A stretch of 49,048 nt of DNA, taken from positions 1 to 49,048 of the forward strand of contig JAITNK010000098.1 of assembly GCA_031290515.1 (NCBI GenBank), read 5' to 3'. The position numbers were made by a program, and so were the translations under genes. The notes beneath the pieces were generated by a model, which saw only the letters and a list, made by a program, of their open reading frames with translations, did no database searches and was not told the origin of the DNA. The stretch is from Oscillospiraceae bacterium. GTDB lineage: Bacteria; Bacillota; Clostridia; Oscillospirales; Oscillospiraceae. This document shows positions 4,540-49,048 of the stretch, piece after piece (within the stretch, counting starts at the first letter, position 1; the number at the start of each line of letters is the position of its first letter).

Positions 4540-5805
4540 ATGCTGCTGTTTTGGTACGAGCTTAAAAAGCTCTGGAATCTCAAGGTTCTGCTGTTAATCG
4601 GCGCGCTCGCCGCACTCGCGTACTTCGCGATTCTCCGGTTCGAGATAAACCAGTACAACTCCGAACATTCGTACGGTATGTTCGGCGAATATCAGTACGA
4701 AATGTACACGCGGTACGGCGATTCGCTCTCCCCCGCCGAGTACGAGGACTTCGACGTACCCGGCAAAATCGCGGAGCAAATCGCCGTGCTTGACGGAATC
4801 ATCGCGTCGGAGCCGACGTTCGCGAAGTACGGCATTACCTGCTACGAGGATTACGACCGGGTCATAGGCGAACTGACCAACAGCTATATGACCGATACAG
4901 GCAGAGGATTTCAAACCGTGTTTCCGCCCGAAGTTGACTACGATTTAGGCGTAATAGCAGTTGCAATTTCATACACTCCGCCCGGCGCGGAGGACGAAAA
5001 TCAACATCATATCAACGTGCCCACAATTATGCTGCTGCAACAGCTGCATACGGTCGAGTACTACTACGGCACCGACGGTGTTGCGTTAACGTACACATAC
5101 GACGAACGCCCGGTCGTGGCGCGGCGGGCGCAAAAGCTGCTCGCGCAGCCGGAAAAATCTCTGCTGGACTACCATTTTTCGAGCGAATTCTCAACCTACG
5201 CCGCATATACCGCGGTTTTCGCGGCGGTCGTCTCGCTGCTTCCGGTCGCGCTGTTTATCACGACGGACAGGGCGCGGCGGGTACGCGCGCTGCAATACCC
5301 GTCAAAAACCGGACGGCGCGTCTTCCGGACGCAGTTTTTCGCCTGCGCCGTAAGCTCTCTCGCAATCGCCGCCGCGACAATCTGCGCGAGCTACGCGCTG
5401 TTTTTCGCGCAAAGCGGCGCGGCGAAATTACTCGGCTTCGATATGATGCTCTGCGGCGGGACGTTTTTCCTGTACAATATTACGGTCGGCGAATACGTCG
5501 CGGTTCTCGCGGGAATGACCGCCGCGCTGTGCGTCGGGTCGGCTTGCTTCGCGTTCGTGCTCGGCAGATTTTCGTCCGATATTGTAAGTCTGCTGCTGAA
5601 AGCCGTGCCGGTCGGAGCCGCGGCGGGCTTCATCGCTATGTACGCGGTTATGCACGCTCTGTCGGAGCGCAACTGGATATTTTCGTACCCCTTTAACGGA
5701 CGAATCGACGCTGCGGAGGTTCTGACCGCCGCCGCGTTTATGCTGCTCGGACTCGCGGCGGCAGGGCTTGTTATACGGCGAGAACAGCGCGCGGAGGAAA
5801 TATAA
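4540..5805 (+). CDS. ABC-2-type permease-like membrane protein (paralog 1)
   Basis: N-terminal MLLFWYELKKLWNLK motif and TM helix, an extracytoplasmic domain of about 200 aa, then about 5 C-terminal TM helices. Clear paralog of 6839-8083. Confidence 0.7.
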   Translation: MLLFWYELKKLWNLKVLLLIGALAALAYFAILRFEINQYNSEHSYGMFGEYQYEMYTRYGDSLSPAEYEDFDVPGKIAEQIAVLDGIIASEPTFAKYGITCYEDYDRVIGELTNSYMTDTGRGFQTVFPPEVDYDLGVIAVAISYTPPGAEDENQHHINVPTIMLLQQLHTVEYYYGTDGVALTYTYDERPVVARRAQKLLAQPEKSLLDYHFSSEFSTYAAYTAVFAAVVSLLPVALFITTDRARRVRALQYPSKTGRRVFRTQFFACAVSSLAIAAATICASYALFFAQSGAAKLLGFDMMLCGGTFFLYNITVGEYVAVLAGMTAALCVGSACFAFVLGRFSSDIVSLLLKAVPVGAAAGFIAMYAVMHALSERNWIFSYPFNGRIDAAEVLTAAAFMLLGLAAAGLVIRREQRAEEI

Positions 5806-6842
5806 TGCTGTTCCTGTATGAACTCAAAAAGCTGCTCTTAACGCCCGCGATTGCGGCGTTTCTCATAATATGCGCCGTCGTAAACACGTTTATCGTGGTT
5901 TCGTCATACGTCTGGCAGTACGAGCCGGCGAACCTCGCGGAGCAAGCCGACGTTTTCGACGGCTTCGACGCGCGGGAAATCGCCGAGCGGTACATCGGGG
6001 AGTACTCGCTTTCAGGCGGAAGCGAGGCGAATATCCGCGAAAAGTACGCGAAGCTGCAACCGGTAATCGACGCAAAAGCCGCGCGGGACGACAGTATGTC
6101 CGAATACTTCGGCGTCAACACGCGCACGCTCCACACGCTGCTGTTTAAGCAGCTGTTCGGCGCAATCGCGGCGGAGTCGTGCGTCGCCGCGCTGTTCTTC
6201 GCGCTGCTCGGAACCGGCTACGAACAGACGCGCAACACCGAGAGCATCGTCTGCGCGTCGCGAACCGGACGGCGGATTCTGCTGCCGAAGCTGCTCGCCG
6301 CGCTTATCGCGTCGGCTGTGTTTCTCGCCGCGCTTACCGCAGTTACGCTCGCGGTCGCGTTCGCCAAATTCGGCTACGCGTCGGTACTCGGCGACAACGT
6401 GTCGAGCTTGTACAACACCGCGGTGCAGGGCAATACCAACAACGGCATTAAGCCGCTGATTACGCTCCGGAGCTTCACCGTCGGCGGGCTTATCGCGGCG
6501 AGTCTCGGGCTGACGCTCGCGCTCGCCTGGTGCTTCGCGCTGTTCGGCTTCGCGGTCGGCGCGGCGATTCGCGGAGGATACGGCGCGACGCTCGCGTCGA
6601 TTGCCGTACTCGCGGCGAGCGTCGTCGCCGCGCCGCTGTTCGCCGTCGGAAGCGAAGCGCGGTACGCGTTCGCGTCGATTCCGCCGGGGCTGATTCTCGG
6701 CGCGGGAACCTGGTTCACGGACGGCGGCGCGATGATAACCCATCTGCGTTTTGAGACGACCGGGACGGCTCTGTCGCTCGCGGTACTCGCCGCGCTGTCG
6801 CTCGCCGCCGCGGCATATTACAAAAGGAGAGACCTGAAATGA
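5805..6842 (+). CDS. ABC-2-type permease-like membrane protein (paralog 2, shorter)
   Basis: TAATG stop/start overlap. Same N-terminal motif (MLFLYELKKLLL). One TM helix, a loop of about 100 aa, then a multi-TM C-terminus. Confidence 0.65.
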   Translation: MLFLYELKKLLLTPAIAAFLIICAVVNTFIVVSSYVWQYEPANLAEQADVFDGFDAREIAERYIGEYSLSGGSEANIREKYAKLQPVIDAKAARDDSMSEYFGVNTRTLHTLLFKQLFGAIAAESCVAALFFALLGTGYEQTRNTESIVCASRTGRRILLPKLLAALIASAVFLAALTAVTLAVAFAKFGYASVLGDNVSSLYNTAVQGNTNNGIKPLITLRSFTVGGLIAASLGLTLALAWCFALFGFAVGAAIRGGYGATLASIAVLAASVVAAPLFAVGSEARYAFASIPPGLILGAGTWFTDGGAMITHLRFETTGTALSLAVLAALSLAAAAYYKRRDLK

Positions 6843-8083
6843 GAGTATTTCTTTACGAACTCCGCAAAATCTGGAACCTGAAAGCGGTACTTATAATCTC
6901 CGCGCTCGGCGCGCTCGCGTATTTCGCGCTGAGCTACGGTCTGATTGCGAGCTACAACGAAGGACACTACTCTACCGGCTACTACGTCAGCGAGATGTTC
7001 CGCCGTTACGGCGCGACGCTCGACGCGGAGGAATACGCCGACTTCGACTTTGCCGGGCGCAAAGCCGAACTTGAGCGCGAAATTACCGAACTGATCGCCG
7101 AATATCCGGTTTTCGCGGAGTACGGCGTCGAAACGCTTGAAGACTATGAGCGCGTCAGCGGTGAAATCTGGGAAGAGCACACGGTCCGGAACCCGGACGG
7201 CTCCGGCTATCTGCCCGACCCGTGGATTTCTGAGTTGCAGGAGATGAGTTTCCTGATTAACGACCTCAACGGCCCGTACTTTAAGCTTATGAACCTGACC
7301 ACAGTAGAGGAATACTACAACCCGCTTGACAAAGAATACGCCGTGTCGTGGTACGTCTCCCCGGAATCCGAAAACGGCAACAGCTATCGCCCGGCGCAGC
7401 TCCGCCGCGCCGAGGCGTTCGCCGCAAGACCGGAGGTGGATCTGATTCCGTACAATCTGACTACGACGTTCTCCGCGTTTGCGATGGTTGTCCTGATATT
7501 CTCGGTCGGCGCGTCGGTCATACTCGCCGCGCCCGCCGTAGTCACCGACCGCCAGCGGAAAGTGTTCGCCCTGCAATACTCGTCGCAAAAGGGGCGGCGC
7601 GTGTTCACCGCGCAGACCGCAGCCGCGCTTTTCTCCGCGTTCGCGCTGACGCTCGCGCTCGTCGCGGCGAGCTACGCGGCGTTTCTGACGCAAACCGACG
7701 CTTCGGACTATCTCGGAGTCCGCATTACGAGTACGCTTATGTCGTTTTATATGTGGGATTTCACGCTTTTGCAGTATTTTCTCCTGCTCGCGGGAATGAC
7801 CGTATCCGTCGCCGCCGGCGCGGCGGGACTCGCGTTTGTGCTCGCGCGGCACTCGAACAGCGTCGTGACGCTGATGCTCAAGGCCGCGCCCGCCGCCGCC
7901 GGCTGCGCCGCGCTCGGCGCGCTCGCGGTGAACTACGCAACCTCAAACTGGAACTATGTGTTCGGTGAAATTTTCAACGGCAAGCGCGACCTGCCGGAGG
8001 TGTGGGTCTGCGCCGCGCTCGCGGTCGCCGGACTGATTCCGGCGGTCGTCACCGCGGTGCGCGAGCGGCGGCTGGACGTGTAG
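6839..8083 (+). CDS. ABC-2-type permease-like membrane protein (paralog 3)
   Basis: ATGA overlap. MRVFLYELRKIWNLKAVL... The shared internal block TDRQRKVFALQYSSQKGRRVF matches TDRARRVRALQYPSKTGRRVF in paralog 1. Confidence 0.7.
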   Translation: MRVFLYELRKIWNLKAVLIISALGALAYFALSYGLIASYNEGHYSTGYYVSEMFRRYGATLDAEEYADFDFAGRKAELEREITELIAEYPVFAEYGVETLEDYERVSGEIWEEHTVRNPDGSGYLPDPWISELQEMSFLINDLNGPYFKLMNLTTVEEYYNPLDKEYAVSWYVSPESENGNSYRPAQLRRAEAFAARPEVDLIPYNLTTTFSAFAMVVLIFSVGASVILAAPAVVTDRQRKVFALQYSSQKGRRVFTAQTAAALFSAFALTLALVAASYAAFLTQTDASDYLGVRITSTLMSFYMWDFTLLQYFLLLAGMTVSVAAGAAGLAFVLARHSNSVVTLMLKAAPAAAGCAALGALAVNYATSNWNYVFGEIFNGKRDLPEVWVCAALAVAGLIPAVVTAVRERRLDV

Positions 8084-8108
8084 AGTAACAGCATAATAAT
8101 ACATCGGC

Positions 8109-8140
8109 GGCGTTACGGTACTTATCCGTAACGCCGTTTG
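8109..8140. terminator. Bidirectional terminator hairpin between convergent genes
   Basis: 10-bp stem GGCGTTACGG / CCGTAACGCC with a 7-nt loop, followed by GTTTG. Lies between the stops at 8083 (+) and 8144 (-). Confidence 0.6.
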
Positions 8141-8143
8141 CGG

Positions 8144-8695
8144 TTACTCTCCCCCGTTCAGCCACACGGCGAGACTGCGCACTCCCTCAAGCGCGGTCTC
8201 GTCCTCCGCCGCCGGAACCGTGTCGGTGTTCATCGACAGCACGGTGTGCGCGCCGAACCCGGAGGCGTTCATCATTCGGAACAGCACCGCGGACATACGC
8301 ACCGCGCCGTTTTCGTTGCCCTTGCCGCCGCCTACGAGAATCAGCCCCGCGCGTTTCGGGCGCAGTACAAACGGGTCGTTCAGCTCGTACTTCGCGTTGC
8401 GCTGCACCTGAAACCGGCTCGCGATGTTCATCATTTGCCCGGGCAGCGTCGAATAGTACACCGGCGAGGCGATAACGGCATTGTCGAAATCGTCGCCGTA
8501 GATTGCGCGCATATCGTCGTCGATAGCGCAGCCTTTGACCCGCGCGCAGGCGCGGCAGTCCACGCACGGCGACAGCTTCGCGCGGTACGCCGACAGCTCC
8601 GCGACCTCGCCGGAAAGGTGCGCGCGCAGCTCCCGGACGAGCGCGGCGGTGTCGCCGTTCACGCGCGGCGAGCCGTTGATGATGAGCGTTTTCAA
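8144..8695 (-). CDS. Flavodoxin-like fold NAD(P)H-dependent FMN reductase / iron-sulfur flavoprotein family
   Basis: MKTLIINGSPRVNGDT... and a CVDCRAC cysteine cluster. TTG start 8 nt after GGAGG. Confidence 0.8.
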   Translation of the reverse strand: MKTLIINGSPRVNGDTAALVRELRAHLSGEVAELSAYRAKLSPCVDCRACARVKGCAIDDDMRAIYGDDFDNAVIASPVYYSTLPGQMMNIASRFQVQRNAKYELNDPFVLRPKRAGLILVGGGKGNENGAVRMSAVLFRMMNASGFGAHTVLSMNTDTVPAAEDETALEGVRSLAVWLNGGE

Positions 8696-8753
8696 GGGCG
8701 GTACCTCCGTATTGTGGTTTGTGTGCTGTGATTATACCCGGTTTTTGAAATTA

Positions 8754-8809
8754 TTTCAACATATTTCGCAAAACCCCTTGACACGCCCCCCCCCGTCATA
8801 TGTTATTAT
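8754..8809 (+). promoter_or_regulatory. Promoter module A: conserved upstream block, TTGACA, C9 tract, TGtTATTAT (20-nt spacer)
   Basis: TTGACA 8778-8783, CG + C9 (8786-8794) + GTCATATGT, extended -10 TGT-TATTAT 8801-8809. The 24 nt upstream of -35 match the second copy at 26229-26252 (minus) at 20 of 24 positions. Confidence 0.5.
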
Positions 8810-8838
8810 GATATATCAAATATTTGGAGGAATCAGCA

Positions 8839-8925
8839 ATGAAAAAAGCAATCTCTAAGACAGTCTCCCTGCTCCTGGCACTTTTCGCCGCAAACTTGAT
8901 TATTGCGGTTCTTGCCGCCGTGTGA
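8839..8925 (+). CDS. Unannotated 28-aa single-pass membrane peptide (micro-ORF)
   Basis: GGAGG 8826-8830 lies 8 nt before ATG 8839. Product MKKAISKTVSLLLALFAANLIIAVLAAV, stop TGA 8923-8925. Too short for the ORF track. Confidence 0.4.
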   Translation: MKKAISKTVSLLLALFAANLIIAVLAAV

Positions 8926-8955
8926 TACAATAGACGCAAAAAAGGCGGTACTGTT

Positions 8956-11058
8956 ATGACTAACGTAGAACTGCTCACCTCGCGGTTCGCCGCGCTCCCG
9001 CGCATCGGGGAAACGGGACCGCAGTCCGGCTTCAACGGAAAGCGTATGACCGCGCTCGGGCGGCGTACGCGCCTGATTCACGCCGCGCTGTGCGTAATCG
9101 GGCTTGCGCCGTTTGCGCTGTGGCTGCTGTACCTGCTGAAGCTCGTCAGCTTTAAGGTGCCGCCGCAGCTCGTCGCGGTCGGCTTCGGGCTTGTCGTGCC
9201 GGGCGGCGGCTTCATTGCCTGCGGCGAGCCGGTGACGGTCGCAATCGGACTGTTTATCTGCTTCTGGCTCTGGAAAAAGCGCGGAATGATGATTCAGGAC
9301 TTCCTCGGCAGCTTTATGGGAATCGTCGGGTTCTGGGCGCTCGGCGCAGCCGGCGGACTGCTCGCGTTCGGGTGGTACTCGTGGGACTACGCCGCGTTCG
9401 GTCTCGCGCCTTTCGGCTACGCGCCGTGGGGGTACGCCGCCGCGGTCGGAACCGCGTTCGCGCTGTTCGTGCCGTACGAGCTTCAGGTGCGCCGTATGTA
9501 TAAGCAGATGTCGGCGGCGCGCGACGAGCGTCTGCCGCTGTTCGACGACGCGGTTGCGGAGCTTGACGCGGCGACCGGCGACCGCAGCATTGTCGGAGAA
9601 AAGGAATTCCGGCAAAACGGCGGCGGCGTCCGGAGCGGTGATACGGCGAAAGAACCCGGCGCGGACGAACTCGACGACGAGCAGCTGCTCGCCGCGCGGT
9701 ATCTGCTCGAGGCGACCGTGCGCGAGAAGGGCGACTTCGACGGCTTCGAGCATTTGTTCGGACTCGCCGACTACCGCTATCAGCTCTCGGTGTACGGTTA
9801 CGGGCTTATGCTGCTTCACGCGAAGTATCTGCCGAACTTCGAGGGGTACCTCAAAAAAGCGCACAGATTCCTTATCGAGTCGTACTCCGACCCGCGCACC
9901 TGCGGCTACTGGGCGAAGCAGGCGAAAGTCGGATACCTGTCGAACAACCCCGACCCGATTGTCAAAGCAAACGTAATGCTCTCCGGCTGGATGATGCCGG
10001 TCGTCGCCGGATACCGCGACCAGTACGGCGACGACGAGTACGAGAAAGAGGCTTCGATTCGCTTTCAGCCGTTCGCCGACAAACCGGAAGAGACGTACGA
10101 CTACAACTCCGCGGGCGTGTTCGGCGTACTGTACCGGCAGTATAAGAATCACGAATACCCGTATATGCTCATTCCGTGCGAACCGCACGTCGCGTTTCCC
10201 GCCTGCAACTCCGTCGCGCTGCTCGGTATGCTCGTCTACGACCGCGACCACGGCACGGACTACTGCGCCGGCTTCTGGGACGAACTGTACGACAACCTGC
10301 AGTCCGACTTCATCGAAATCGACGGTACTATGGCTCTGCGCCGGCAGTATCAGTACGGACTGCGGCACCTGCCCTCGTCGCAAATCGGCTATATGCCGCT
10401 CGCGGACGTTCAGAACTATATGCACTTTTCCGCGATATTCCCCGGTCTCGCGAGACGGTGCTACGCGCTCGTGCGGAAGACTCTGCTGTCAATCGACGCA
10501 GACGGCGCGGCGCAGGTGAACGGTCAGCCGTGGGATATGATGTTCAATATGTTCACGATGAAACCCGACCCCTCGACGCAGATCGCGATGCTCGAGCTTA
10601 CCGCCGCGGAGTACGGCGACCTTCCGGTGTACGACGCGCTGCGCGTCGCCGAGTCGCGGTTCCTCGCGAAGAGCAAAGACCCGACCTCGTTCAAGTTTAA
10701 GGACGTAAACTCGCTGACAGTCGCCTATATCGCGCTCGCGCGGCTGATTAAAAAAGGCTACTGGTCGGACGTTATTCTGCGCGGTATGCCGGAGACTTCC
10801 AAAACGGGTCCCGTGCTGACCGACTGTCCGTTCCCGGACGTTATTCCTGCGAAAGCGTCGAGTTCCGGAGACGACCTCGACCTCGTGCTCACGACCTCCG
10901 GCGAGCCGGTCGCCGCCGGAATCAGAATCGAACGCCTAAAGCCGGGCGCGCGGTACGCGTACGGCGCGGGCGCGTTCACTGCGGACGCGGACGGGGCGGC
11001 GACGCTTACCGTCGAAGTCGGACGGCGCACCGCGATACATATCGTTCCGGAGGCGTAA
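8956..11058 (+). CDS. 700-aa membrane protein: about 6 N-terminal TM helices plus a soluble domain of about 500 aa of unassigned family
   Basis: Long ORF with ordinary amino-acid composition, unlike the Arg-rich antisense ORF 8833-10425. Hydrophobic N-terminal 190 aa. I have only a weak unverified impression of an alpha/alpha-toroid-type domain. Confidence 0.75.
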   Translation: MTNVELLTSRFAALPRIGETGPQSGFNGKRMTALGRRTRLIHAALCVIGLAPFALWLLYLLKLVSFKVPPQLVAVGFGLVVPGGGFIACGEPVTVAIGLFICFWLWKKRGMMIQDFLGSFMGIVGFWALGAAGGLLAFGWYSWDYAAFGLAPFGYAPWGYAAAVGTAFALFVPYELQVRRMYKQMSAARDERLPLFDDAVAELDAATGDRSIVGEKEFRQNGGGVRSGDTAKEPGADELDDEQLLAARYLLEATVREKGDFDGFEHLFGLADYRYQLSVYGYGLMLLHAKYLPNFEGYLKKAHRFLIESYSDPRTCGYWAKQAKVGYLSNNPDPIVKANVMLSGWMMPVVAGYRDQYGDDEYEKEASIRFQPFADKPEETYDYNSAGVFGVLYRQYKNHEYPYMLIPCEPHVAFPACNSVALLGMLVYDRDHGTDYCAGFWDELYDNLQSDFIEIDGTMALRRQYQYGLRHLPSSQIGYMPLADVQNYMHFSAIFPGLARRCYALVRKTLLSIDADGAAQVNGQPWDMMFNMFTMKPDPSTQIAMLELTAAEYGDLPVYDALRVAESRFLAKSKDPTSFKFKDVNSLTVAYIALARLIKKGYWSDVILRGMPETSKTGPVLTDCPFPDVIPAKASSSGDDLDLVLTTSGEPVAAGIRIERLKPGARYAYGAGAFTADADGAATLTVEVGRRTAIHIVPEA

Positions 11059-40955: not shown

Positions 40956-41603
40956 CTAATCCTCTAACCGCACTCTCTTTTTCGCGCGCGCCGCCAGCAC
41001 AATCCGCACAAACCACAGCAGAATGAACAGCTGCGCGACTCCGCAGACGATGAACAGCAGCCACGCGTACCGAAGCTCGCTCAAAAACAGGTACACGCAG
41101 GCGGCGGAAGTCCAGGCGAGCGCGCTTACCGATATGAACAGCAGCTTCGGTCCCCACCACAGCGCGGAGGCGACGACAAACGCCGCGGCGGACGCCGGCA
41201 CCGCGACGACAAACGTAATCCACGCGTACGGAATCTCCGGAAATATCAGCTTCCAGAACGTAAACGCGAGCGTCGCGGCAAGCCAGACGCAGACGAGAAT
41301 CTGAAGAAATACGACTACCCTGCTGCGGTTTCCGGGTGCGACGGGCATACCCGCCGAGGCGGGCGTTTCTATCAGAAAGTCATTCACGGTAACGCCGTAA
41401 AGCTCCGCGAGCCTGCTGAGCAGGAACACGTCCGGCGTACCGCCCGCGCGCTCCCACTTGGAGACGGACTTATCCGAATAGTTAATAAGCGCGGCAAGCT
41501 CGCTCTGCGTCAGTCCGCGCTGTCTTCTGTAATACACGAGGTTTTTCGCTATCGTCGTCGAGAGTTTCCCGTTGCCGGATTGCTCTTCTGAAATGAAAAA
41601 CAC
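40956..41603 (-). CDS. XRE-family HTH regulator fused to a C-terminal membrane domain of about 4 TM helices
   Basis: HTH segment RQRGLTQSELAALINYSDKSVSKWERAGGTPD, then hydrophobic helices. The start is uncertain: GTG 41603 abuts the SD, and ATT 41594 has ideal spacing. The track start at 41669 lies inside the predicted promoter. Confidence 0.7.
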   Translation of the reverse strand: MFFISEEQSGNGKLSTTIAKNLVYYRRQRGLTQSELAALINYSDKSVSKWERAGGTPDVFLLSRLAELYGVTVNDFLIETPASAGMPVAPGNRSRVVVFLQILVCVWLAATLAFTFWKLIFPEIPYAWITFVVAVPASAAAFVVASALWWGPKLLFISVSALAWTSAACVYLFLSELRYAWLLFIVCGVAQLFILLWFVRIVLAARAKKRVRLED

Positions 41604-41640
41604 CTCTCTTTCAGTCACTCTACTGAGGATAGATACGTTT

Positions 41641-41669
41641 ATTATAACTCTACTTTCGCAAAAGCGCAA
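41641..41669 (-). promoter_or_regulatory. sigma-A-type promoter TTGCGC-17-TATAAT for the XRE-membrane gene
   Basis: Minus strand: TTGCGC (41669-41664), 17-nt spacer, TATAAT (41646-41641). Confidence 0.5.
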
Positions 41670-41928: not shown

Positions 41929-42816
41929 TTGGCTGGGTATCAGGTCACAGCGTCCTCGACGACGGATTTGCCCGCGGATTACTATGTGAAGCGGAGCGTT
42001 CCGATTGCGAACTACAGGTTTCATCTTGACGGAGAGGTTTATCTCGACGATTTCGGGAAGTCTCTGCCGCTCTCCGAGTTTTACAGGAGAATCGGCGAGG
42101 ACGGCGCGGAGCCTACGACTTCGCAGCTCAACCTGTCGGACTATATCAGTCTATTCGAGCCGATTCTGCACCGGGGCGAGGACGTTCTGCACCTTGAGAT
42201 GTCCTCGGCTATCACCGGTTCGATTCAGTCCGCGTACTTTGCGCGCGACCAGCTCTCCGCGCAGTACCCCGACCGCAGGATTTATCTTGTGGACACGCTC
42301 GCCGCGAGCGCGGGCTACGGGCTGCTGCTCGACAAAGTACTCGACTTCCGCGACGAAGGTATGCCCGCAGAAGAGCTTTACAACTGGACCGAGGCGCACA
42401 AGCTGAATATGCACCACTGGTTTTTTACGTCGGAGCTGAAACACCTGCGCCGCGGCGGGCGCGTCTCGGCTTCCGCCGCAATCGTCGGGACGTTTCTGAA
42501 CATCTGCCCGCTTATGAATATGTCGAATGAGGGCAAGCTGACCCCGAGGGCTAAAATCCGCGGCAAAAAGCACGTCGTCGCGGAGTGCGTCCGGCGAATG
42601 GCTGAGTTCGCGGACGGCGGAACGTCATACTCCGGCAAGGTCTTTTTGTCGCATTCCGCGAATATGACGGACGCGCAGTCCGTCGTGTCGCTGGTACTCG
42701 CGACGTTCCCGAACGTCAGGGAGGTTCAGGTTTCCGACGTCGGCACCGTCATCGGAAGTCACACCGGACCCGGTACTGTCGCGCTGTTCTTCTGGGGGCG
42801 GAAGCGCGTGGATTAG
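41929..42816 (+). CDS. DegV-family fatty-acid-binding protein
   Basis: TTG start 8 nt after GGGAGG. Typical DegV layout (SSTTDLP..., TSQLNLSDY, SSAITGSIQSA, GTVIGSHTGPG). Confidence 0.9.
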   Translation: MAGYQVTASSTTDLPADYYVKRSVPIANYRFHLDGEVYLDDFGKSLPLSEFYRRIGEDGAEPTTSQLNLSDYISLFEPILHRGEDVLHLEMSSAITGSIQSAYFARDQLSAQYPDRRIYLVDTLAASAGYGLLLDKVLDFRDEGMPAEELYNWTEAHKLNMHHWFFTSELKHLRRGGRVSASAAIVGTFLNICPLMNMSNEGKLTPRAKIRGKKHVVAECVRRMAEFADGGTSYSGKVFLSHSANMTDAQSVVSLVLATFPNVREVQVSDVGTVIGSHTGPGTVALFFWGRKRVD

Positions 42817-42828
42817 CGGAAATACCGC

Positions 42829-42870
42829 AAAAAGCAAAGGAGCGTACTTTCGTACGCTCCTTTGCTTTTT
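42829..42870. terminator. Strong bidirectional rho-independent terminator
   Basis: Perfect 18-19-bp stem AAAAGCAAAGGAGCGTAC-TTTC-GTACGCTCCTTTGCTTTT, flanked by A and T runs. Confidence 0.85.
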
Positions 42871-42938
42871 GCTTCGGCGGCAGCCGCGGACGGCGTAAGT
42901 CCGCCCGCCGCCTGCGTTCTGACCCGTCCGAGTGGCTA

Positions 42939-42985
42939 TTGACAATCCGCATATTTCGTAATATTATATAATTGTTTACAATTAT
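42939..42985 (+). promoter_or_regulatory. Promoter TTGACA-17-TATTAT with an 8+2+8 perfect palindrome (operator-like) at the transcription start
   Basis: TTGACA 42939-42944 and TATTAT 42962-42967. Palindrome ATAATTGT-TT-ACAATTAT at 42968-42985. Confidence 0.55.
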
Positions 42986-43020
42986 CCTCCGCTTTGCGTA
43001 AACGGTAAGGAGACGCGATT

Positions 43021-44610
43021 ATGTTTTACAGCATACTTTTTCCCTCTCCGGAACACATTGCTCTGACCGAGAGTCCGCCGCAGTATTTCGCCGATACTAA
43101 CCTCGACCAGCTCGTGTTTCACATTGCGACCGTAAAGAAGGCGCATAAGCTCGCGCCGCACTTCTGTACTCCGCTGTCCGACCTGCGGACAATCGAATAC
43201 CGGCAGCAAGTCCTGCGCGAGCTGGAGGACGGGAGTCTGCGCGAGCTTTACGGCGAGCTTTCGGACGCGGTCTGCGAAATCGAAGCCGCTATGGAAAAAG
43301 CGGGCGGCGACCTGACGTCTTTCGCGAACGCCAACCTCGACGGGTCGCCGCGCTATAAATATTTCGCGCTCGGACAGTTTCTGAACTGCGCGTCGAATTA
43401 CTGCGCCACTATCGAAAAGCTGACGGCTTCCGTCGCCGCCGCGGAGTTCAGGTCCGAAGGACTGCGCGCGTTCGCCGAATACCTCGCCGGGTACGCCGCG
43501 TCGGAGGAGTTTGCGAAACTGCGCTCTCAGGCGGCGGAACTTCGCGGCAAGCTCAAATCTGTGCGGTACAATATGCTGCTCGAAAACACGCAAAGCGGTA
43601 TGAAAGCGGCGTCTGCCCGCGTCCGGCGGTACGACGGCGAGGAATCGTATTCGGACAGTCTGCTCGCGCTGTTCCGAAAGTTCAGGCAGTCGGACGGCGA
43701 GCCGTACAAACGCGTCTTGCCGGAAACACCGGTGTCAGTGGCGAATGAACACGCGCTGCTCGGACTGGTCGCGAAAACGCACCCGGAAGTTTTCGTCAAG
43801 CTTCGGAGCTTTTGTATGGCTAACCTCAGTTACCTCGACGAAACTATCGGCAGATTCGCGCACGAGATTCAGTTTTACATAGGCTGGCACGAATACACCG
43901 CCGCGGTGCGCGCCGCGGGACTGCCGCTGTGCTATCCGACGCTGATAACCGGCGCGGGAGACGTGCGCTTGCGCGGTATGTTTGACGTTGTGCTCGCGGC
44001 AAAGCAGCGGGGAACCGGTATAATTCCGAACGACTTTGAACTCGTTGCGCCGGAGCGGATTGCGGTCATCACGGGACCGAACCAGGGCGGCAAGACGACT
44101 CTCTCCCGCGCTTTCGGACAGGCGCACTACTTAGCGTCGCTCGGTCTGTCCGTACCCGGTACCGAAGCGCGGCTGTTCCTGTGCGATAAAATACTGACTC
44201 ACTTCGGCAAGCAGGAGGACCTCGAAATGCTGTCCGGACAGTTGCAGGACGACTTAATCCGGCTCAAGTCGCTGTTCGACTCGGCGACGCCGCGCAGCAT
44301 CATTATCATCAACGAAATATTCGCGTCAACGACGCTGTTCGACGCGCTCGCAATCGGCAGGCTCGTAATGGATAAGCTCACGAAACTCGGCGCGCCCGCG
44401 CTGATGATTACGTTTCTCGACGAGCTTGCGGACTACGGCGAAAACACAATCAGCGTCGCGGGCGTCGTGGACGCGGAAAGTCCGGAACGCCGCACATACA
44501 GGTTCGAGCGCAAGCGGCCGGAGAGCCTCGCTTACGCCGGACACATTATGCGCAAGTACAACCTCACCCCCGAGCTTATGGACGGGAGACTGCAAAAATG
44601 CAAAAGCTGA
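43021..44610 (+). CDS. MutS-family core/ATPase-only protein (no mismatch-binding or Smr domain), paralog A
   Basis: AAGGAG RBS. Walker A GPNQGGKTT, Walker B IIIINE (D to N), and an N-terminal MutS-core-like helical region (IEYRQQVLRELED). Confidence 0.8.
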   Translation: MFYSILFPSPEHIALTESPPQYFADTNLDQLVFHIATVKKAHKLAPHFCTPLSDLRTIEYRQQVLRELEDGSLRELYGELSDAVCEIEAAMEKAGGDLTSFANANLDGSPRYKYFALGQFLNCASNYCATIEKLTASVAAAEFRSEGLRAFAEYLAGYAASEEFAKLRSQAAELRGKLKSVRYNMLLENTQSGMKAASARVRRYDGEESYSDSLLALFRKFRQSDGEPYKRVLPETPVSVANEHALLGLVAKTHPEVFVKLRSFCMANLSYLDETIGRFAHEIQFYIGWHEYTAAVRAAGLPLCYPTLITGAGDVRLRGMFDVVLAAKQRGTGIIPNDFELVAPERIAVITGPNQGGKTTLSRAFGQAHYLASLGLSVPGTEARLFLCDKILTHFGKQEDLEMLSGQLQDDLIRLKSLFDSATPRSIIIINEIFASTTLFDALAIGRLVMDKLTKLGAPALMITFLDELADYGENTISVAGVVDAESPERRTYRFERKRPESLAYAGHIMRKYNLTPELMDGRLQKCKS

Positions 44611-46085
44611 GCGCATATCTGATGCTCCGCGGCCGCGCGTTCGACGCGGACGCGCCGAAGTGCGCCGGACACCCGACACTTACCGCCGATTTGGAGCTTA
44701 CGCACATCATTAAAGCTATGGCGCGGGGCGACGGCGTTATCCGCGACGCGTGCGCCGCCGCGCTGCTTACGCCGCTTCAGACGCGTGAGGAGATAGAGTT
44801 CCGCCATACTGTACTCCGGGACGCGCAGGCAAATTCGGACGCGGTTCGCCGGCTTTACGAAATCATCGCGGACGCGGATAAAATCCGCGACGACGGATGG
44901 CGCGCATTTTCCGGCACGTCGGACGCAAAGATTTATCTGCACGCGCTCGACGTACTGGTTGCCTACCTTGATTCGCTTGCGAAGCTGCGCATTGCGGCGA
45001 ACGGAGACGCGGCGCGTTTCAAGTCGGACGGTATGAAAAACCTGTACGCTATGCTTTTAACAGAGCTGGACGACGAACTTTTCACCGAAGCGCGCCGCCG
45101 GATTAACGAAATGTCCGCGATTAACACGGTGCTGGTCAGCGCGGAACTTGACGACAATCTGTTTGGCGTTAACTACACCCTGCGCAAGAAAAAAAGCGGT
45201 ACGGCTTGGCTGCAATGGCGGCTTGCCCCGATTTACAGTTTTGACGAGGACACGAGCGGTATGACGTTCGGAAAAGACGACTGGGAATCCCGCCGCGACC
45301 GCGCGTTCAACGATTTGGCGTACGTTCTCGCGCAGGCGGCGCGGTACCTCGACACGTTTTTCGCAATGCTGCGCCGCGAGCTCGCGTTCTACATAGGCTG
45401 TCTGAATCTTGAGGACACGCTCCGAGCTATCGGCGCGCCGTACTGTCTGCCGGAGCTTCGGGACGCCGGACGCTTCGACCGCAGTTACCGAAATCTGTAC
45501 GATTTGAGTCTTACGCTCGTGACCGGCAAACCCGCCGTCGGCAACGAGCTTGACAGCGCGGACACGAAGCTCTACGTCGTCACCGGCGCGAATCAGGGCG
45601 GCAAGTCCACTTTTCTGCGAAGCGTCGGACAGGCGCAGCTTATGGCGCAGTGCGGTATGCCTGCGGCTGCGGACGGCGCGAGTTTTCCGCTGCGCGGCAA
45701 CGTGTTCACGCACTTCAAGCGCGAGGAGGACGCGGGTATGCGCTCCGGCAAGCTCGACGAGGAAATGCGCCGAATGGACGCAATCGTCGAAAATACCGCG
45801 CCGCACTCAATGGTGCTGCTGAACGAGTCGTTCGCGTCCACGAACGAGCGCGAGGGTTCGGAGATTTGCCGCCGGATTACGCGGGGCTTCACGCGCAACG
45901 GCGTCGAAGTGTTTTCCGTGTCGCACCTGTACGCGTACGCGTCGTCGTTTGCCGGGGAGGATAACACGCTTTTCTTACGCGCGCAGCGTCTCTCCGACGG
46001 CACGCGCACATTCAGGCTCGAGCGCGCGGAGCCTCTCGCGACCGCGTTCGGCGAGGAGCTGTACCACAGGATTTTCGGGGAGTGA
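44598..46085 (+). CDS. MutS-family core/ATPase-only protein, paralog B
   Basis: 13-nt overlap with paralog A. Walker A GANQGGKST, Walker B MVLLNE (D to N), and IEFRHTVLRDAQ. Confidence 0.8.
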   Translation: MQKLSAYLMLRGRAFDADAPKCAGHPTLTADLELTHIIKAMARGDGVIRDACAAALLTPLQTREEIEFRHTVLRDAQANSDAVRRLYEIIADADKIRDDGWRAFSGTSDAKIYLHALDVLVAYLDSLAKLRIAANGDAARFKSDGMKNLYAMLLTELDDELFTEARRRINEMSAINTVLVSAELDDNLFGVNYTLRKKKSGTAWLQWRLAPIYSFDEDTSGMTFGKDDWESRRDRAFNDLAYVLAQAARYLDTFFAMLRRELAFYIGCLNLEDTLRAIGAPYCLPELRDAGRFDRSYRNLYDLSLTLVTGKPAVGNELDSADTKLYVVTGANQGGKSTFLRSVGQAQLMAQCGMPAAADGASFPLRGNVFTHFKREEDAGMRSGKLDEEMRRMDAIVENTAPHSMVLLNESFASTNEREGSEICRRITRGFTRNGVEVFSVSHLYAYASSFAGEDNTLFLRAQRLSDGTRTFRLERAEPLATAFGEELYHRIFGE

Positions 46086-46194: not shown

Positions 46195-47736
46195 TCAGGG
46201 CAGCCACTCTCCGCCGACGTCGGCGCGCGTCAGGTGGTACTCAATGACGTCGAGGACGAACGGGACGTATTTTTCGCCGTGTTCGTCCATCAGCTCGTGG
46301 TATTCGCCGGAGTTTGTGGGTCGGAACGGCGCGGAGACGTTGTAATAGTCTCCGAAAGCCGCGCGCTCCGCGTCCGTCCACTTATAGACTTCCCCGACGC
46401 AGCCGAGGTTGCGGCGCAGCCGCTGTTCGACGAGCGCGTGCGCCGCCTTGAATCCGTCGAAGCCAAGCAGCGCGGACTTCGCGAAATCGTCGTCCTCCAG
46501 ATAATAATAGCACTCGCAGAACGCGTAGTTCAGTACGCAGTCCGTGCCGGAGATGTTAAAATCCATAAGTCCGGCGAGCTTACCGCCGTCAAAAAGCAGA
46601 TTCGAGTTGTTCAAATCCGCCTGAAAGACGGCTTTCGGCAGCGCGCGGTACGTCGGCTCGAACGCGGCGTAGCGTCTGCGAAACTCCCGTACGAGCGCGG
46701 CGATACGCTCCGCGTACTGCGGGTAGTCCGCGCTTATGCGCCGCTCGAGTCCGGCGGCGTTTGCGAGGATTTCGACGTCCTCGTCGTCCGGCGAAAACCT
46801 GTCGTATATGTCGTACGCGCTCACCCACGGGACGAGCGGCGCGGAGCTTGCCGCGACGAGTCCGAGTCCGCGGAACAGCTCCTCCGCGAAGTTCTCGCGC
46901 TTGCAGTTTTTGTCCTGCGCGAATTTTGAGAACTCCTCCGCCCAGACGACGTAACCGTTAAGTTCGGCGGTATAATCGCCGGCGGCGGTTCGCAGATAGC
47001 GCGGCGCGTAAATCCCGAGCGCGTTGTACCGCTCCGTGAGGTCTGCCCAGCCGTTCACGCGCTCGCGAGTCGAGAAGCCGCTTTTCGCGGCTTTTATCAC
47101 GCATTTGCCTCGCCCGTGGAACTCGGCGAAAAACGTGAGCCGCAAGTCGTTTTTGCGCTGCGAGCCGTCGTGAAACGCGATGCTCACCGACGGTTCCGCG
47201 GAAAACAGCGCGGCGAGAGCCGCCGTGTCGAATCCGTCCGCGAGCATACATTTCTTGAACATAAGCAGTTTCGCGCCGAAGCGTTCCTTGTCGCCGAACG
47301 GGTCGCGCGTGAATCCGCAACGCTCGAAAAACGCGATTGCGGGCGCGTCCGTCTCACCGGCGCGCAGGAAAATCTCGCCTATGCCGAGCGTTTTGAAATA
47401 CTCCGCCGCGTACTCCATAAGCCGCCGCCCGAACCCTTTGCCGCGATGCTCGGGAAGTATGTAAACCGTCTCGACGCAGCCTGTGTCCAGGTCGCCGTAA
47501 AGTTCGCGCTTTTCAAGGACAATCAGACCGACGGAAACGCCGCCGAGCGTCGCCGCGACGATTGAATCCGGCGCGCCGGCAAACTGCCGCCGCCTTGCGT
47601 CAAGCTCTTTTGCGTAGAATTCGTCGGAGACTTCAGCCCCGAGCGTCAGTTTATACGTCTCGCGGAACGCCGACGAGTACAAGTGCGGCTGCGCGTCAAC
47701 GTCGAGCGGTGCGAAATCCGGTTTATTTGTTTCCAC
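46195..47736 (-). CDS. Fusion of a GNAT acetyltransferase (N-terminal) and an aminoglycoside-phosphotransferase-like kinase (C-terminal)
   Basis: GNAT motif A HRGKGFGRRLMEYAAEY...FFERCGF. APH-like catalytic loop FQADLNNSNLLFD and GLMDFNISG. GTG start 8-9 nt after GGAGG. Confidence 0.75.
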   Translation of the reverse strand: METNKPDFAPLDVDAQPHLYSSAFRETYKLTLGAEVSDEFYAKELDARRRQFAGAPDSIVAATLGGVSVGLIVLEKRELYGDLDTGCVETVYILPEHRGKGFGRRLMEYAAEYFKTLGIGEIFLRAGETDAPAIAFFERCGFTRDPFGDKERFGAKLLMFKKCMLADGFDTAALAALFSAEPSVSIAFHDGSQRKNDLRLTFFAEFHGRGKCVIKAAKSGFSTRERVNGWADLTERYNALGIYAPRYLRTAAGDYTAELNGYVVWAEEFSKFAQDKNCKRENFAEELFRGLGLVAASSAPLVPWVSAYDIYDRFSPDDEDVEILANAAGLERRISADYPQYAERIAALVREFRRRYAAFEPTYRALPKAVFQADLNNSNLLFDGGKLAGLMDFNISGTDCVLNYAFCECYYYLEDDDFAKSALLGFDGFKAAHALVEQRLRRNLGCVGEVYKWTDAERAAFGDYYNVSAPFRPTNSGEYHELMDEHGEKYVPFVLDVIEYHLTRADVGGEWLP

Positions 47737-47833: not shown

Positions 47834-49048
47834 TCACGCATAGAGCGCAAGCAGCACCGGTAAACCGCGCATAACGTATGTGTTTTCGCCTGTTTTCTGG
47901 ATTATCCAGTGCATAAACTCCGGACTGCCGTCGCGGGTTAAACCTCCGGGAAACGCCCCCGGGTCTGCGTACATTTTCCCGAATCCGGCAAGTTCCCCGT
48001 CCCACTCTATTCCGCAATCATAATCGGCAATCCACTGGTCTTGCGTCAGACTATACGCTTCGGTTGCCGTCAGGTTAAGCGATTTAAGCCACTCTTTTTC
48101 TTGCGTTTCGTCATATACCGTCACGGAATGCAGAATATAATCTGTAATAGTGAATGACTGTCCGGCGTGTGAAACGCTCAGATAATCAAGCATTATCCGC
48201 CCCAGTTCCGCCGCAATTGCATCGATACTCGTTTCTTTCGTTGTTAATTCAAAGATAACCGGACAGTCAACCGCGCTTCTGAACACAAGCCAGTCGTCGT
48301 CGTACTTCGCGTTATACAACACTATTGCCTCCTCCGTGGGTTCCGATGCCGCGTCGAACGTAATTTGATTAACCCCCGCACCAAGCAAAATGCTCTTTGC
48401 GATTGCGTCGATTTGTTCCGGCGTGAAGCTGCTTCGGTCAAGGTCAAACGCGACGTAAACCGGAAGCGTTTTGCTGTAAGAAACTATGCCGAAATTGTAG
48501 TCCGCTTCGCCGTAATTCCCCGAGGCGGAGCCGTTGCCGCTAAACGCAAGGTCATTGTAGACGTAGGTCGTCGCGGTCGCAAGCGCGCCGGTGTCGCTGA
48601 CAACGTCGTACTTTTCGTTAATCAGGAAGCTGTAATGCGCGCCCAAACCGATTTGATTGTAAACCATCATCGGCGAAAACTCCGCCGCCGGGACGCCGGC
48701 AAGCGCGTCGGGGTCGTAGATGTTGTAGCCGAGACTTCCGACCGCAATGCCGTTTGCGCCGAGCACCGGAATGTTGGAAAACGTGCCGGAAATGCCGTCG
48801 GGATACAGCGATTTGCCGCTGTCGATTGTCATTCCGTCCGGCAGAACTACCGCGAGCCTGAACGCAGCGTCAAAAACAGCCGCGCTGTATTCGGTTTTGC
48901 CGTCCTCGTTTGCGGGGAACGCGACTAAATATCCGTTGCCGTCAGGCGTTGTGATAACGGGCGCGGCGGGCGTAGGGCTTGTCGCGGCGGGCGTGGGCGT
49001 TGCGCTGACCGGCGCGTCCGGCGTGGGGCTGACCGGTGCGTCCGGCGT
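47834..49048 (-). CDS. Secreted or cell-surface protein with a Pro/Thr-rich repeat linker; 5' end outside the window
   Basis: I translated the frame upstream of the track start at 48832 by hand. It stays open to 49048 (...TPDAPVSPTPDAPVSATPTPAATSPTPAAPVITTPDGNGYLVAFPANEDGK...), so the gene is 5'-partial. Confidence 0.7.
   Translation of the reverse strand, partial: TPDAPVSPTPDAPVSATPTPAATSPTPAAPVITTPDGNGYLVAFPANEDGKTEYSAAVFDAAFRLAVVLPDGMTIDSGKSLYPDGISGTFSNIPVLGANGIAVGSLGYNIYDPDALAGVPAAEFSPMMVYNQIGLGAHYSFLINEKYDVVSDTGALATATTYVYNDLAFSGNGSASGNYGEADYNFGIVSYSKTLPVYVAFDLDRSSFTPEQIDAIAKSILLGAGVNQITFDAASEPTEEAIVLYNAKYDDDWLVFRSAVDCPVIFELTTKETSIDAIAAELGRIMLDYLSVSHAGQSFTITDYILHSVTVYDETQEKEWLKSLNLTATEAYSLTQDQWIADYDCGIEWDGELAGFGKMYADPGAFPGGLTRDGSPEFMHWIIQKTGENTYVMRGLPVLLALYA
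49004..49048. repeat. 24-bp tandem repeat encoding TPDAPVS(P/A), truncated by the window edge
   Basis: GCTGACCGGCGCGTCCGGCGTGGG is followed by GCTGACCGGTGCGTCCGGCGT. Confidence 0.7.

Follow-up and report, generated by a model that had tools for sequence, protein, structure and literature searches.

The window analysed here is a stretch of 49,048 nucleotides (nt), positions 1-49,048 of contig JAITNK010000098.1 from an Oscillospiraceae bacterium (assembly GCA_031290515.1), and the pair of genes under study, designated A1 and B1, occupies positions 43021-46085. The pair is a self-contained two-gene operon whose products, judged by sequence comparison, are a MutS4A and a MutS4B protein. A preliminary description of this DNA, made from the letters alone, had read the locus as tandem paralogs of 529 and 495 amino acids (aa) that overlap by 13 nt and combine a MutS core with an ABC-type ATPase carrying the Walker A motifs GPNQGGKTT and GANQGGKST. 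Open reading frame (ORF) coordinates confirm the lengths and the overlap, motif alignment confirms both Walker A sequences, and A1 and B1 align along their entire length as paralogs (26% identity, E 3e-30). The genes and the principal features of their products are as follows.

43021-44610, plus strand: gene A1, MutS4A type, 529 aa; core/lever, short clamp-like hairpin, ABC ATPase and C-terminal helix-turn-helix; A clade, ultrafast bootstrap (UFboot) 99
44598-46085, plus strand: gene B1, MutS4B type, 495 aa; start 13 nt inside gene A1; B clade, UFboot 99
44074-44100, plus strand: Walker A of A1, GPNQGGKTT, from motif alignment
45585-45611, plus strand: Walker A of B1, GANQGGKST, from motif alignment
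44299-44334, plus strand: Walker B of A1, IIIINEIFASTT; N431-E432 invariant in 62 A-type sequences
45810-45845, plus strand: Walker B of B1, MVLLNESFASTN; N409 invariant and E410 nearly so in 61 B-type sequences
44404-44427, plus strand: H-loop region of A1, MITFLDEL; T464-F465 invariant, with Phe in place of the MutS H-loop His
45915-45938, plus strand: H-loop of B1, SVSHLYAY; His443 present in 90% or more of B-family sequences
43561-43737, plus strand: predicted clamp-position hairpin of A1, residues 181-239 (strands 183-188 and 198-203, helix 211-221); local predicted local distance difference test (pLDDT) score 54-86
45129-45263, plus strand: predicted clamp-position hairpin of B1, residues 178-222 (strands 178-184 and 190-197, helix 203-209); local pLDDT 46-64, which is low
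44527-44580, plus strand: predicted C-terminal helix-turn-helix of A1 (helices 502-512 and 517-528), counterpart of the dimer-embracing helix-turn-helix of MutS

The sole Pfam domain in either protein is MutS_V (E 2e-17 in A1, 1e-13 in B1), and searches for MutS_I, MutS_II, Smr and KOW found none of them in A1 or B1; together with Foldseek, these results uphold the earlier statement that mismatch-binding, Smr and other nuclease domains are absent. AlphaFold2 models built on alignments of 61-62 sequences reached pLDDT 88.9 and a predicted template modelling score (pTM) of 0.86 for A1, and pLDDT 84.5 and pTM 0.83 for B1, and Foldseek matched both models near full length to MSH2, MutS and the MutS2 core (E 1e-19 for A1, 3e-17 for B1). 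The preliminary description erred on one point, in that it denied both proteins a clamp-length insertion, whereas AlphaFold2 places a two-strand beta hairpin followed by a helix between the long lever helices of both, at the position of MutS domain IV; the insertion in A1 is about as long as that domain. On these models, both proteins would consist of core/lever, small clamp and ATPase, rather than of core and ATPase alone.

Membership in MutS4 and asymmetry of the ATPase motifs

MutS4A and MutS4B were named in 2007 by Lin, Nei and Ma, who described adjacent genes encoding an ATPase domain with or without the core, gave as the hallmark of the subfamily the overlap of the stop of A with the start of B, found it patchily distributed in bacteria and present in Thermoplasmata, and listed MutS1, MutS2 and MutS4 in Thermoanaerobacter (PMC2190696). 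A MutS4 operon in mycobacteria was subsequently reported by Kim et al. in 2017 (PMC5742357). Homolog searches returned thousands of relatives for each of the two proteins, among which SEED-derived names read 'MutS domain protein, family 5' for A and 'family 4' for B; a search of 1.84 billion representatives gave 788 clusters at 50% identity that match A1 at E <= 1e-30. The nearest database sequences are 48% identical to A1 and 55-56% identical to B1.

Gene order was compared in 80 loci from named genomes and three others, and B lies directly downstream of A in every one (83/83). At 56 of 71 loci the two genes overlap by ATGA, and over 70 loci the A-A and B-B distances correlate with r = 0.90, a value that fits co-inheritance as a unit and is no proof of contact. 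In a maximum-likelihood tree of the ATPase domain (IQ-TREE), the A and B clades (UFboot 99 each) are sisters (A+B, UFboot 100) and stand apart from MutS1, MutS2, KamC and a MutS3-like protein. Placement in such a phylogeny had been proposed as a check on the preliminary description, and it puts A1 in the MutS4A clade and B1 in the MutS4B clade. The tie to the published MutS4 is indirect and runs via a Thermoanaerobacter genome: Thermoanaerobacter sp. A7A holds the pair, its only adjacent one, and its remaining MutS_V genes are MutS1, MutS2 and a single short, broken fragment. The family also includes loci of Actinomycetota, and a plasmid of Mycobacterium branderi carries it. The earlier view that this type of pair is poorly characterised therefore holds for its function but not for the type itself, which was named in 2007 and studied in 2010 and 2017; the proteins fall inside a named subfamily, though not a functionally characterised one, and no mismatch-binding or nuclease domain had been missed.

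Three other assignments were considered and rejected. MutS1 is contradicted by the lack of MutS_I and MutS_II and by NCBIfam scores of 45-78 bits against cut-offs of 480-642, and MutS2 by the lack of Smr and KOW and by TIGR01069 scores of 50-57 bits against a cut-off of 400. KamC (NF052383, 48.9 and 57.5 bits against a cut-off of 300) has different motifs and falls in a different clade, and offers a distant analogy only. In two apparent A-B fusions, P0274 (1026 aa) and P0344 (942 aa), an A part is continuous with a complete B part, and P0344 additionally lacks about 190 N-terminal residues of A; they were not used as evidence and look like frameshifted or misread gene calls, probably miscalled because the C-terminal end of the A part is unaligned in both. 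Flags for internal TGA codons in relatives proved to mark only the terminal stop codon.

The window pair resembles other MutS4 pairs in its A-then-B paralogs, its start/stop overlap, its restriction to ATPase and core, and its patchy occurrence and proneness to horizontal transfer. It differs in that the overlap is 13 nt long instead of the usual 4-nt ATGA, B1 starting three codons upstream of the ATGA position of relatives, and in that one genome holds three pairs. Since B1 starts inside gene A1, translational coupling is implied.

Asn in place of the Walker B Asp, which the preliminary description had noted in both proteins, is supported by structure-sequence and own-genome alignments alike: the Asn of IIIINE (A1) and VLLNE (B1) aligns to the Walker B Asp of Thermus thermophilus MutS2 and Taq MutS, as well as to that of the MutS1 and MutS2 encoded in the same genome. 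The Asn-Glu motif is shared by 112 of 120 homologs of A and 118 of 120 of B and is invariant in alignments spanning many phyla, which identify it as a family hallmark rather than a peculiarity of the window. It comes with two further replacements, of GRGT by FA(S/A)T and of the STF signature by SG(Q/K)L. Both A1 and B1 have the Walker A Lys, the catalytic Glu and the signature Ser, the Walker B Asp being the residue changed in the two of them; ATPase activity is plausible by analogy, since Escherichia coli MutS D693N hydrolyses ATP at high Mg2+. A1 retains 36/36 and B1 39/39 of the family-invariant residues, and because every one of them is kept both proteins are likely to be functional still.

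A and B differ from each other in a fixed manner. The A family always has Thr-Phe where Thr-His of the H-loop is expected and keeps the C-terminal helix-turn-helix, while in the B family the H-loop His is generally retained and the chain ends before the helix-turn-helix; no published description of this family-wide asymmetry was found in the MutS4 literature searched. In MutS and ABC dimers, both subunits contribute to each ATP site: one supplies Walker A, Walker B and the H-loop, and its partner the signature. Applied to the A/B asymmetry, this rule predicts one degenerate site, one competent site and a single dimerisation arm, a complementary pattern of the kind expected of an obligate heterodimer. 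The preliminary description had proposed a heterodimer whose task is unrelated to mismatch recognition; the invariable pairing, the correlated distances, the complementary asymmetries and the absence of mismatch-binding and nuclease domains all favour that proposal, while the heterodimer itself is still inferred.

The fluoride riboswitch among relatives and in the source genome

Among the first 11 loci of relatives, 8 have the fluoride riboswitch (Rfam RF01734) ahead of the pair or its operon, as does one Desulfosporosinus locus. Counts over the 80 loci were obtained with our own covariance model, built from 13 Rfam-confirmed copies, which detects a same-strand RF01734-type riboswitch no more than 300 nt ahead of A in 38/80 loci (25/80 at E < 1e-3) and no more than 2.5 kb ahead in 51/80. 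Weinberg et al. associated the crcB motif with 'DNA repair (mutS)' genes in 2010, and our literature search on a fluoride-MutS function found nothing beyond that study (PMC2864571). Immediate neighbours over approximately 80 loci include enolase (9 loci) and CoA-binding proteins (4 loci), as well as Usp, a Na+/H+ exchanger, CrcB and DUF190. Across most lineages, the pair belongs to the core of a stress regulon under the fluoride riboswitch and, at 38-51 of 80 loci, is among the most regular cargo of this switch; a link between the crcB/fluoride motif and mutS genes was reportedly also made by Baker et al. in 2012.

A dynamin-like GTPase (Dynamin_N) is the commonest neighbour family, ahead of enolase, and is encoded immediately up- or downstream on the same strand in 14 of the approximately 80 loci (for example at 9050-10816 of locus L015). 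A homolog of A was found on 45 plasmid records, 18 of them from Klebsiella and the remainder from Enterobacter, Citrobacter, Rhodococcus, Burkholderia and others. On the Klebsiella pneumoniae IncFII mobilizable plasmid NZ_CP147604.1 (4903-10050), the fluoride riboswitch precedes an operon of cation:proton antiporter, Usp, MutS4A and MutS4B genes, adjoined by IS26, a SulP transporter and a P-type ATPase.

The source genome (1.96 Mb in 164 contigs, 95.6% complete) departs from this pattern. RF01734 was absent from the window at the gathering threshold, from positions 42700-43150 up to E 10 and from the genome as a whole, and the covariance model found no copy ahead of A1. A hidden riboswitch or leader of the window copy was rejected, as Rfam searches at E up to 10 gave only chance hairpin matches at the terminator. 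CrcB/Fluc and the CLC channel were not detected in the genome, and the window neighbours of the pair (DegV, an XRE-type membrane protein and a GNAT fusion) include no fluoride exporter or fluoride-sensitive enzyme.

Alongside canonical MutS1, MutS2 (792 aa) and MutL, a MutS_V scan of the genome revealed two further A-B pairs, making three in total. Pair 2 lies on the minus strand of contig 66 (7511-10545), with A2 (519 aa, 8986-10545) and B2 (492 aa, 7511-8989) overlapping by 4 nt, and is 44-47% identical to the window pair. Pair 3 lies on the plus strand of contig 55 (5704-8763), where A3 begins with TTG at 5704 and B3 (7285-8763) is intact; A3 is interrupted in frame by one TAG codon (6352-6354) at a position that is Arg in homologs, which could be the mark of a pseudogene, a sequencing error or a polymorphism. 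The three pairs are mutually 42-47% identical and are set among unrelated housekeeping genes. The preliminary description had proposed a check for recurrent partners. No conserved partner genes were found around the three pairs of this genome; among the approximately 80 loci of relatives, the dynamin-like GTPase, enolase and fluoride-regulon neighbours recur.

Pair 2 is flanked by a divergent gene for an MFS transporter and, downstream on the same strand, by a 157-aa ORF followed by ylxM-ffh-rimM; an ortholog of this pair, 61-64% identical, was seen in one genome of the same genus. Pair 3 lies downstream of rnf genes and a gene for an aldo/keto reductase-ferredoxin fusion. A cobalamin riboswitch (RF00174, 72.5 bits) occurs on the plus strand of contig 55 at 10356-10560, 1.6 kb downstream of pair 3 and ahead of an operon.

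In the trees, the pairs of this genome group with riboswitch-less pairs from related Oscillospiraceae-type metagenome-assembled genomes (MAGs). Clustering of B1 with B3 (UFboot 80) and of A1 with A3 (UFboot 58) gives a weak hint that the window pair and pair 3 arose by duplication as a pair. Among 40 relatives, a MutS4 pair is present in 7/11 genomes of the same genus, 9/24 of the same family and 1/16 others; these counts are descriptions and not statistics, as many of the genomes are incomplete and all are kin. The fluoride riboswitch was found in 0/11 genomes of the same genus, and CrcB was matched in 2/11, one match being weak and below the cut-off. Both CrcB-matching genomes gave no MutS4 match, and both are less than 80% complete. 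No riboswitch was found ahead of the three pairs of this genome or ahead of the pairs of ten relatives from the same order, nine of them from the same genus or family. A direct repeat, CTTAATT-CTTT-CTTAATT, was observed ahead of riboswitch-less pairs in same-genus and related MAGs (loci L097, L098 and L019/L101), approximately 60 nt ahead of a promoter with an extended -10 element, TGTATAAT or TGTACAAT; it is unrelated to a palindrome found upstream of the window pair (described below) and may be the site of a regulator.

These searches point to loss of the riboswitch in this organism and its genus. The pair, then, differs here from the regulon to which its relatives belong: none of the three copies nor the same-genus copies has the switch, and the genome has no detectable CrcB or CLC. 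Since the pair persists and multiplies without a detectable fluoride system, its task would seem more general than fluoride handling, and probably concerns damage or stress in general, which fluoride brings about.

Upstream signals and neighbours of the window pair

The preliminary description had placed the pair between a strong terminator and a convergent gene and had given it a promoter of its own with an operator-like palindrome. All four elements were recovered.

42827-42877, plus strand: intrinsic terminator of the upstream DegV gene; perfect 21-bp stem, 4-nt loop and U-run, with an A-run on the other side
42939-42967, plus strand: predicted sigma-70-type promoter TTGACA-17 nt-TATTAT; 11/12 consensus matches
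42968-42985, no strand assigned: perfect 8-2-8 palindrome ATAATTGTTTACAATTAT = ATAATTGT-TT-ACAATTAT, directly 3' of the -10 hexamer
43007-43012, plus strand: Shine-Dalgarno sequence AAGGAG, 8 nt 5' of the ATG of gene A1
46195-47736, minus strand: convergent gene beyond the pair, encoding a GNAT fusion

The strength of the terminator is borne out by RNA folding: the hairpin at 42827-42872 has a folding energy of -37.1 kcal/mol (z = -10.6), and 0/200 shuffles fold as well. The promoter is a predicted site, identified by its match to the consensus; promoter-grade sites number 3 in the 3.8-kb region against 0.9 +/- 0.9 in shuffles. The palindrome is a possible operator by its symmetry, and it is a single copy in the 1.96-Mb genome even with two mismatches allowed. 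An operator shared by the three pairs was rejected on this ground, and because the regions upstream of the other copies and of relatives have no motif in common with it. The leader of gene A1, about 46 nt long, shows no excess structure (z = 0.54) and no Rfam match.

The protein encoded by the convergent gene has 513 aa, with an N-terminal GNAT acetyltransferase domain at residues 38-145; its remaining residues, about 360, have no Pfam match. Two genes upstream of the pair, at 40956-41669 on the minus strand, is encoded an XRE-type helix-turn-helix (HTH_3) protein with a hydrophobic C-terminal half, which may be a membrane-anchored regulator. An ORF at 47834-49048 on the minus strand runs off the end of the window and encodes a Pro/Thr/Ala-rich low-complexity stretch followed by approximately 330 residues.

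Possible mechanism and rival explanations

The reading that we favour, and consider somewhat probable, is that MutS4A and MutS4B form an asymmetric heterodimer, an ATP-driven switch or clamp that engages nucleic acid but does not read mismatches, and that in this organism it has been uncoupled from fluoride sensing and placed under its own promoter. In this scheme, A and B would assemble two non-equivalent composite ATP sites, of which (i) the site built on A, with Phe for the H-loop His, would be degenerate or regulatory, (ii) the site built on B, with the His kept, would be the main hydrolytic site, and (iii) the single C-terminal helix-turn-helix of A would embrace B. The natural Walker B Asn would make MutS4 an ATP switch with weak metal coordination, and the dimer would close its levers and hairpins around nucleic acid, DNA in the first place and possibly RNA. 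Elsewhere the pair would serve the fluoride-stress regulon, while here it would be read from its own sigma-70-type promoter, in three diverged copies.

The metal-dependent part of this scheme draws on E. coli MutS D693N (PDB 3K0S), in which the metal pocket is empty, the Kd for ATP rises from 0.034 to 0.5 uM (about 15-fold weaker binding), basal ATPase is normal at 10 mM Mg2+ and much higher at higher Mg2+, and mismatch stimulation is lost, with fast switching and in vivo repair impaired (PMC2857095). A weak-metal ATP switch is suggested for MutS4 because this mutant loses Mg2+, binds ATP weakly and is strongly Mg2+-dependent; because the catalytic Glu is retained, MutS4 is by the same transfer probably an active ATPase, whose Mg2+ coordination would be weak and concentration-sensitive. 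The two cases share the identical Walker B substitution, and 3K0S slightly outscores wild-type MutS against A1. They differ in that D693N is a single engineered change in a mismatch-repair protein, whereas the Asn of MutS4 is ancestral and accompanied by changed D-loop and signature motifs. A role on DNA is compatible with the finding that the Mycobacterium yongonense operon, placed in M. smegmatis, yields modestly more homeologous recombinants and longer tracts (PMC5742357).

Other members of the MutS family offer partial parallels. The MutS2 core (7VUF; MutS2/RqcU in 7QV3) has the same order of lever/core, small clamp and ATPase and a similar length before Walker A. MutS2, however, is a homodimer with Asp-Glu, STF, Thr-His, KOW and Smr, whereas MutS4 has two genes, Asn-Glu, SG(Q/K)L, FA(S/A)T and no C-terminal extension. 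MSH4-MSH5 is a eukaryotic heterodimer without domain I that clamps recombination intermediates. It is an obligate heterodimer of MutS paralogs without mismatch binding, as is proposed for MutS4, and mycobacterial MutS4 also has a recombination-related phenotype (PMC5742357); it belongs, in contrast, to the MutS1/MSH lineage, with full-size domains II-IV, Asp-Glu and no tie to fluoride regulation. KamC, of about 520 aa, consists of MutS core and ATPase without a mismatch or nuclease domain and indicates that the fold can serve non-DNA tasks, but it is encoded by a single gene, its Walker B reads LILIDELARGTN with the canonical DE, it has STF and TH, and it branches with MutS2.

Several points weigh against the clamp reading. 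The study in M. smegmatis and M. yongonense, the sole functional one, leaves the mechanism unaddressed (PMC5742357). Contact between A and B is deduced from sequence patterns, and the distance correlation of 0.90 would be expected anyway because linked genes share their history. The nucleic-acid substrate is suggested solely by the predicted MutS fold, in which the hairpin at the clamp position is short and of low model confidence, most of all in B. That CrcB, CLC and the riboswitch are absent is read from an assembly in 164 contigs. Lastly, the proposed weakening of Mg2+ binding by Asn is carried over from a point mutant of E. coli MutS and may not apply to MutS4, in which the adjacent residues (FAST for GRGT, SG(Q/K)L for STF) have co-evolved.

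Two alternatives keep a stress-related ATPase and assign it another substrate. The pair could be a protein-directed remodelling ATPase of the fluoride response that, for example, strips Mg-fluoride-phosphate or nucleotide-MgFx from inhibited enzymes and itself avoids metal-fluoride trapping through its Asn-Glu. We regard this as unlikely, even though the pair is firmly part of a regulon that includes fluoride-sensitive enzymes (enolase lies next to it in 9 of about 80 loci), the MutS-fold KamC is named by NCBI as the reactivase of lysine 5,6-aminomutase (NF052383), and the Mg2+-coordinating Walker B Asp, without which the metal site of D693N MutS is empty, is the very residue changed across the family. 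KamC reaches only 49-57 bits against the pair (cut-off 300), and its DE, STF and TH motifs and its grouping with MutS2 make the analogy distant; moreover, this genome keeps three pairs without any fluoride regulon, and no client is conserved beside the pair. The substrate could instead be RNA or the ribosome, with the pair clamping and separating stalled or collided ribosomes or RNA-protein complexes under stress, as a factor like MutS2. In size and architecture the proteins do come nearest to the MutS2 core, no PDB sequence matches either of them better than T. thermophilus 7VUF (template modelling score normalised to the target, 0.60), the structure of Bacillus subtilis MutS2 on a disome (7QV3) is one of the top fold matches, and a dynamin-like GTPase is the neighbour in 14 of about 80 loci. 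Against these stand the absence of KOW and Smr from A1 and B1, the canonical MutS2 that the genome already holds, the separation of the A and B clades from MutS2 and neighbourhoods with no ribosome-related pattern, and we consider a ribosomal role improbable.

A role in anti-phage or anti-plasmid defence, as a patchy, horizontally moving and fast-diverging two-gene ATPase module, would agree with the uneven occurrence even within genus (7/11) and family (9/24), with several diverged copies per genome and with the 45 plasmids, but the fact that at least half of the relatives are controlled by a fluoride riboswitch argues for an abiotic-stress role, the neighbours are housekeeping or fluoride-stress genes and not defence genes, no nuclease or other effector domain is present, and almost no homologs are phage-borne. 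PADLOC returned only marginal partial matches (mad8, 18 bits; NsnB, 15 bits), so that a known defence system was rejected, the neighbourhoods not being defence islands; defence in general is, in our judgement, very improbable. Equally hard to credit is the notion that the window pair is a redundant copy without function, drifting to loss. It could appeal to the in-frame TAG in the A gene on contig 55 and to the long branches of A1 and B1, whose best database identities are 48% and 55-56%, yet both window ORFs are intact, all 36 (A) and 39 (B) family-invariant residues are kept, both proteins are predicted to fold with high confidence, and a near-consensus promoter, a Shine-Dalgarno sequence and a coupled start are in place.

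Returning to the heterodimeric clamp, a more speculative extension, which we also hold to be unlikely, is that Asn-Glu together with the altered D-loop and signature is an adaptation in which weak Mg2+ coordination resists trapping by Mg- or Al-fluoride transition-state analogues, giving a fluoride-proof MutS-type clamp that would go on working on DNA or stalled nucleoprotein while ordinary P-loop NTPases are poisoned. If this were true, lineages that have no exporter or sensor and three constitutive copies would rely on tolerance instead of fluoride export.

The subfamily, its gene overlap (2007) and its link to the crcB riboswitch (2010) were already known, and their classification is unchanged by the present analysis; what is new is a very divergent MutS4 member and the occurrence of three pairs without a riboswitch in one genome. 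Within a family known from textbooks for DNA repair, MutS4 forms a large orphan branch, found in many bacterial phyla, in some archaea and on plasmids of clinical Enterobacterales, and it has a known physiological trigger in fluoride. The fixed asymmetry between A and B, with one degenerate ATP site and one dimerisation arm predicted, points to precise mutants, and the match between the Walker B Asn of MutS4 and a studied E. coli mutant leads to a concrete hypothesis of metal dependence.

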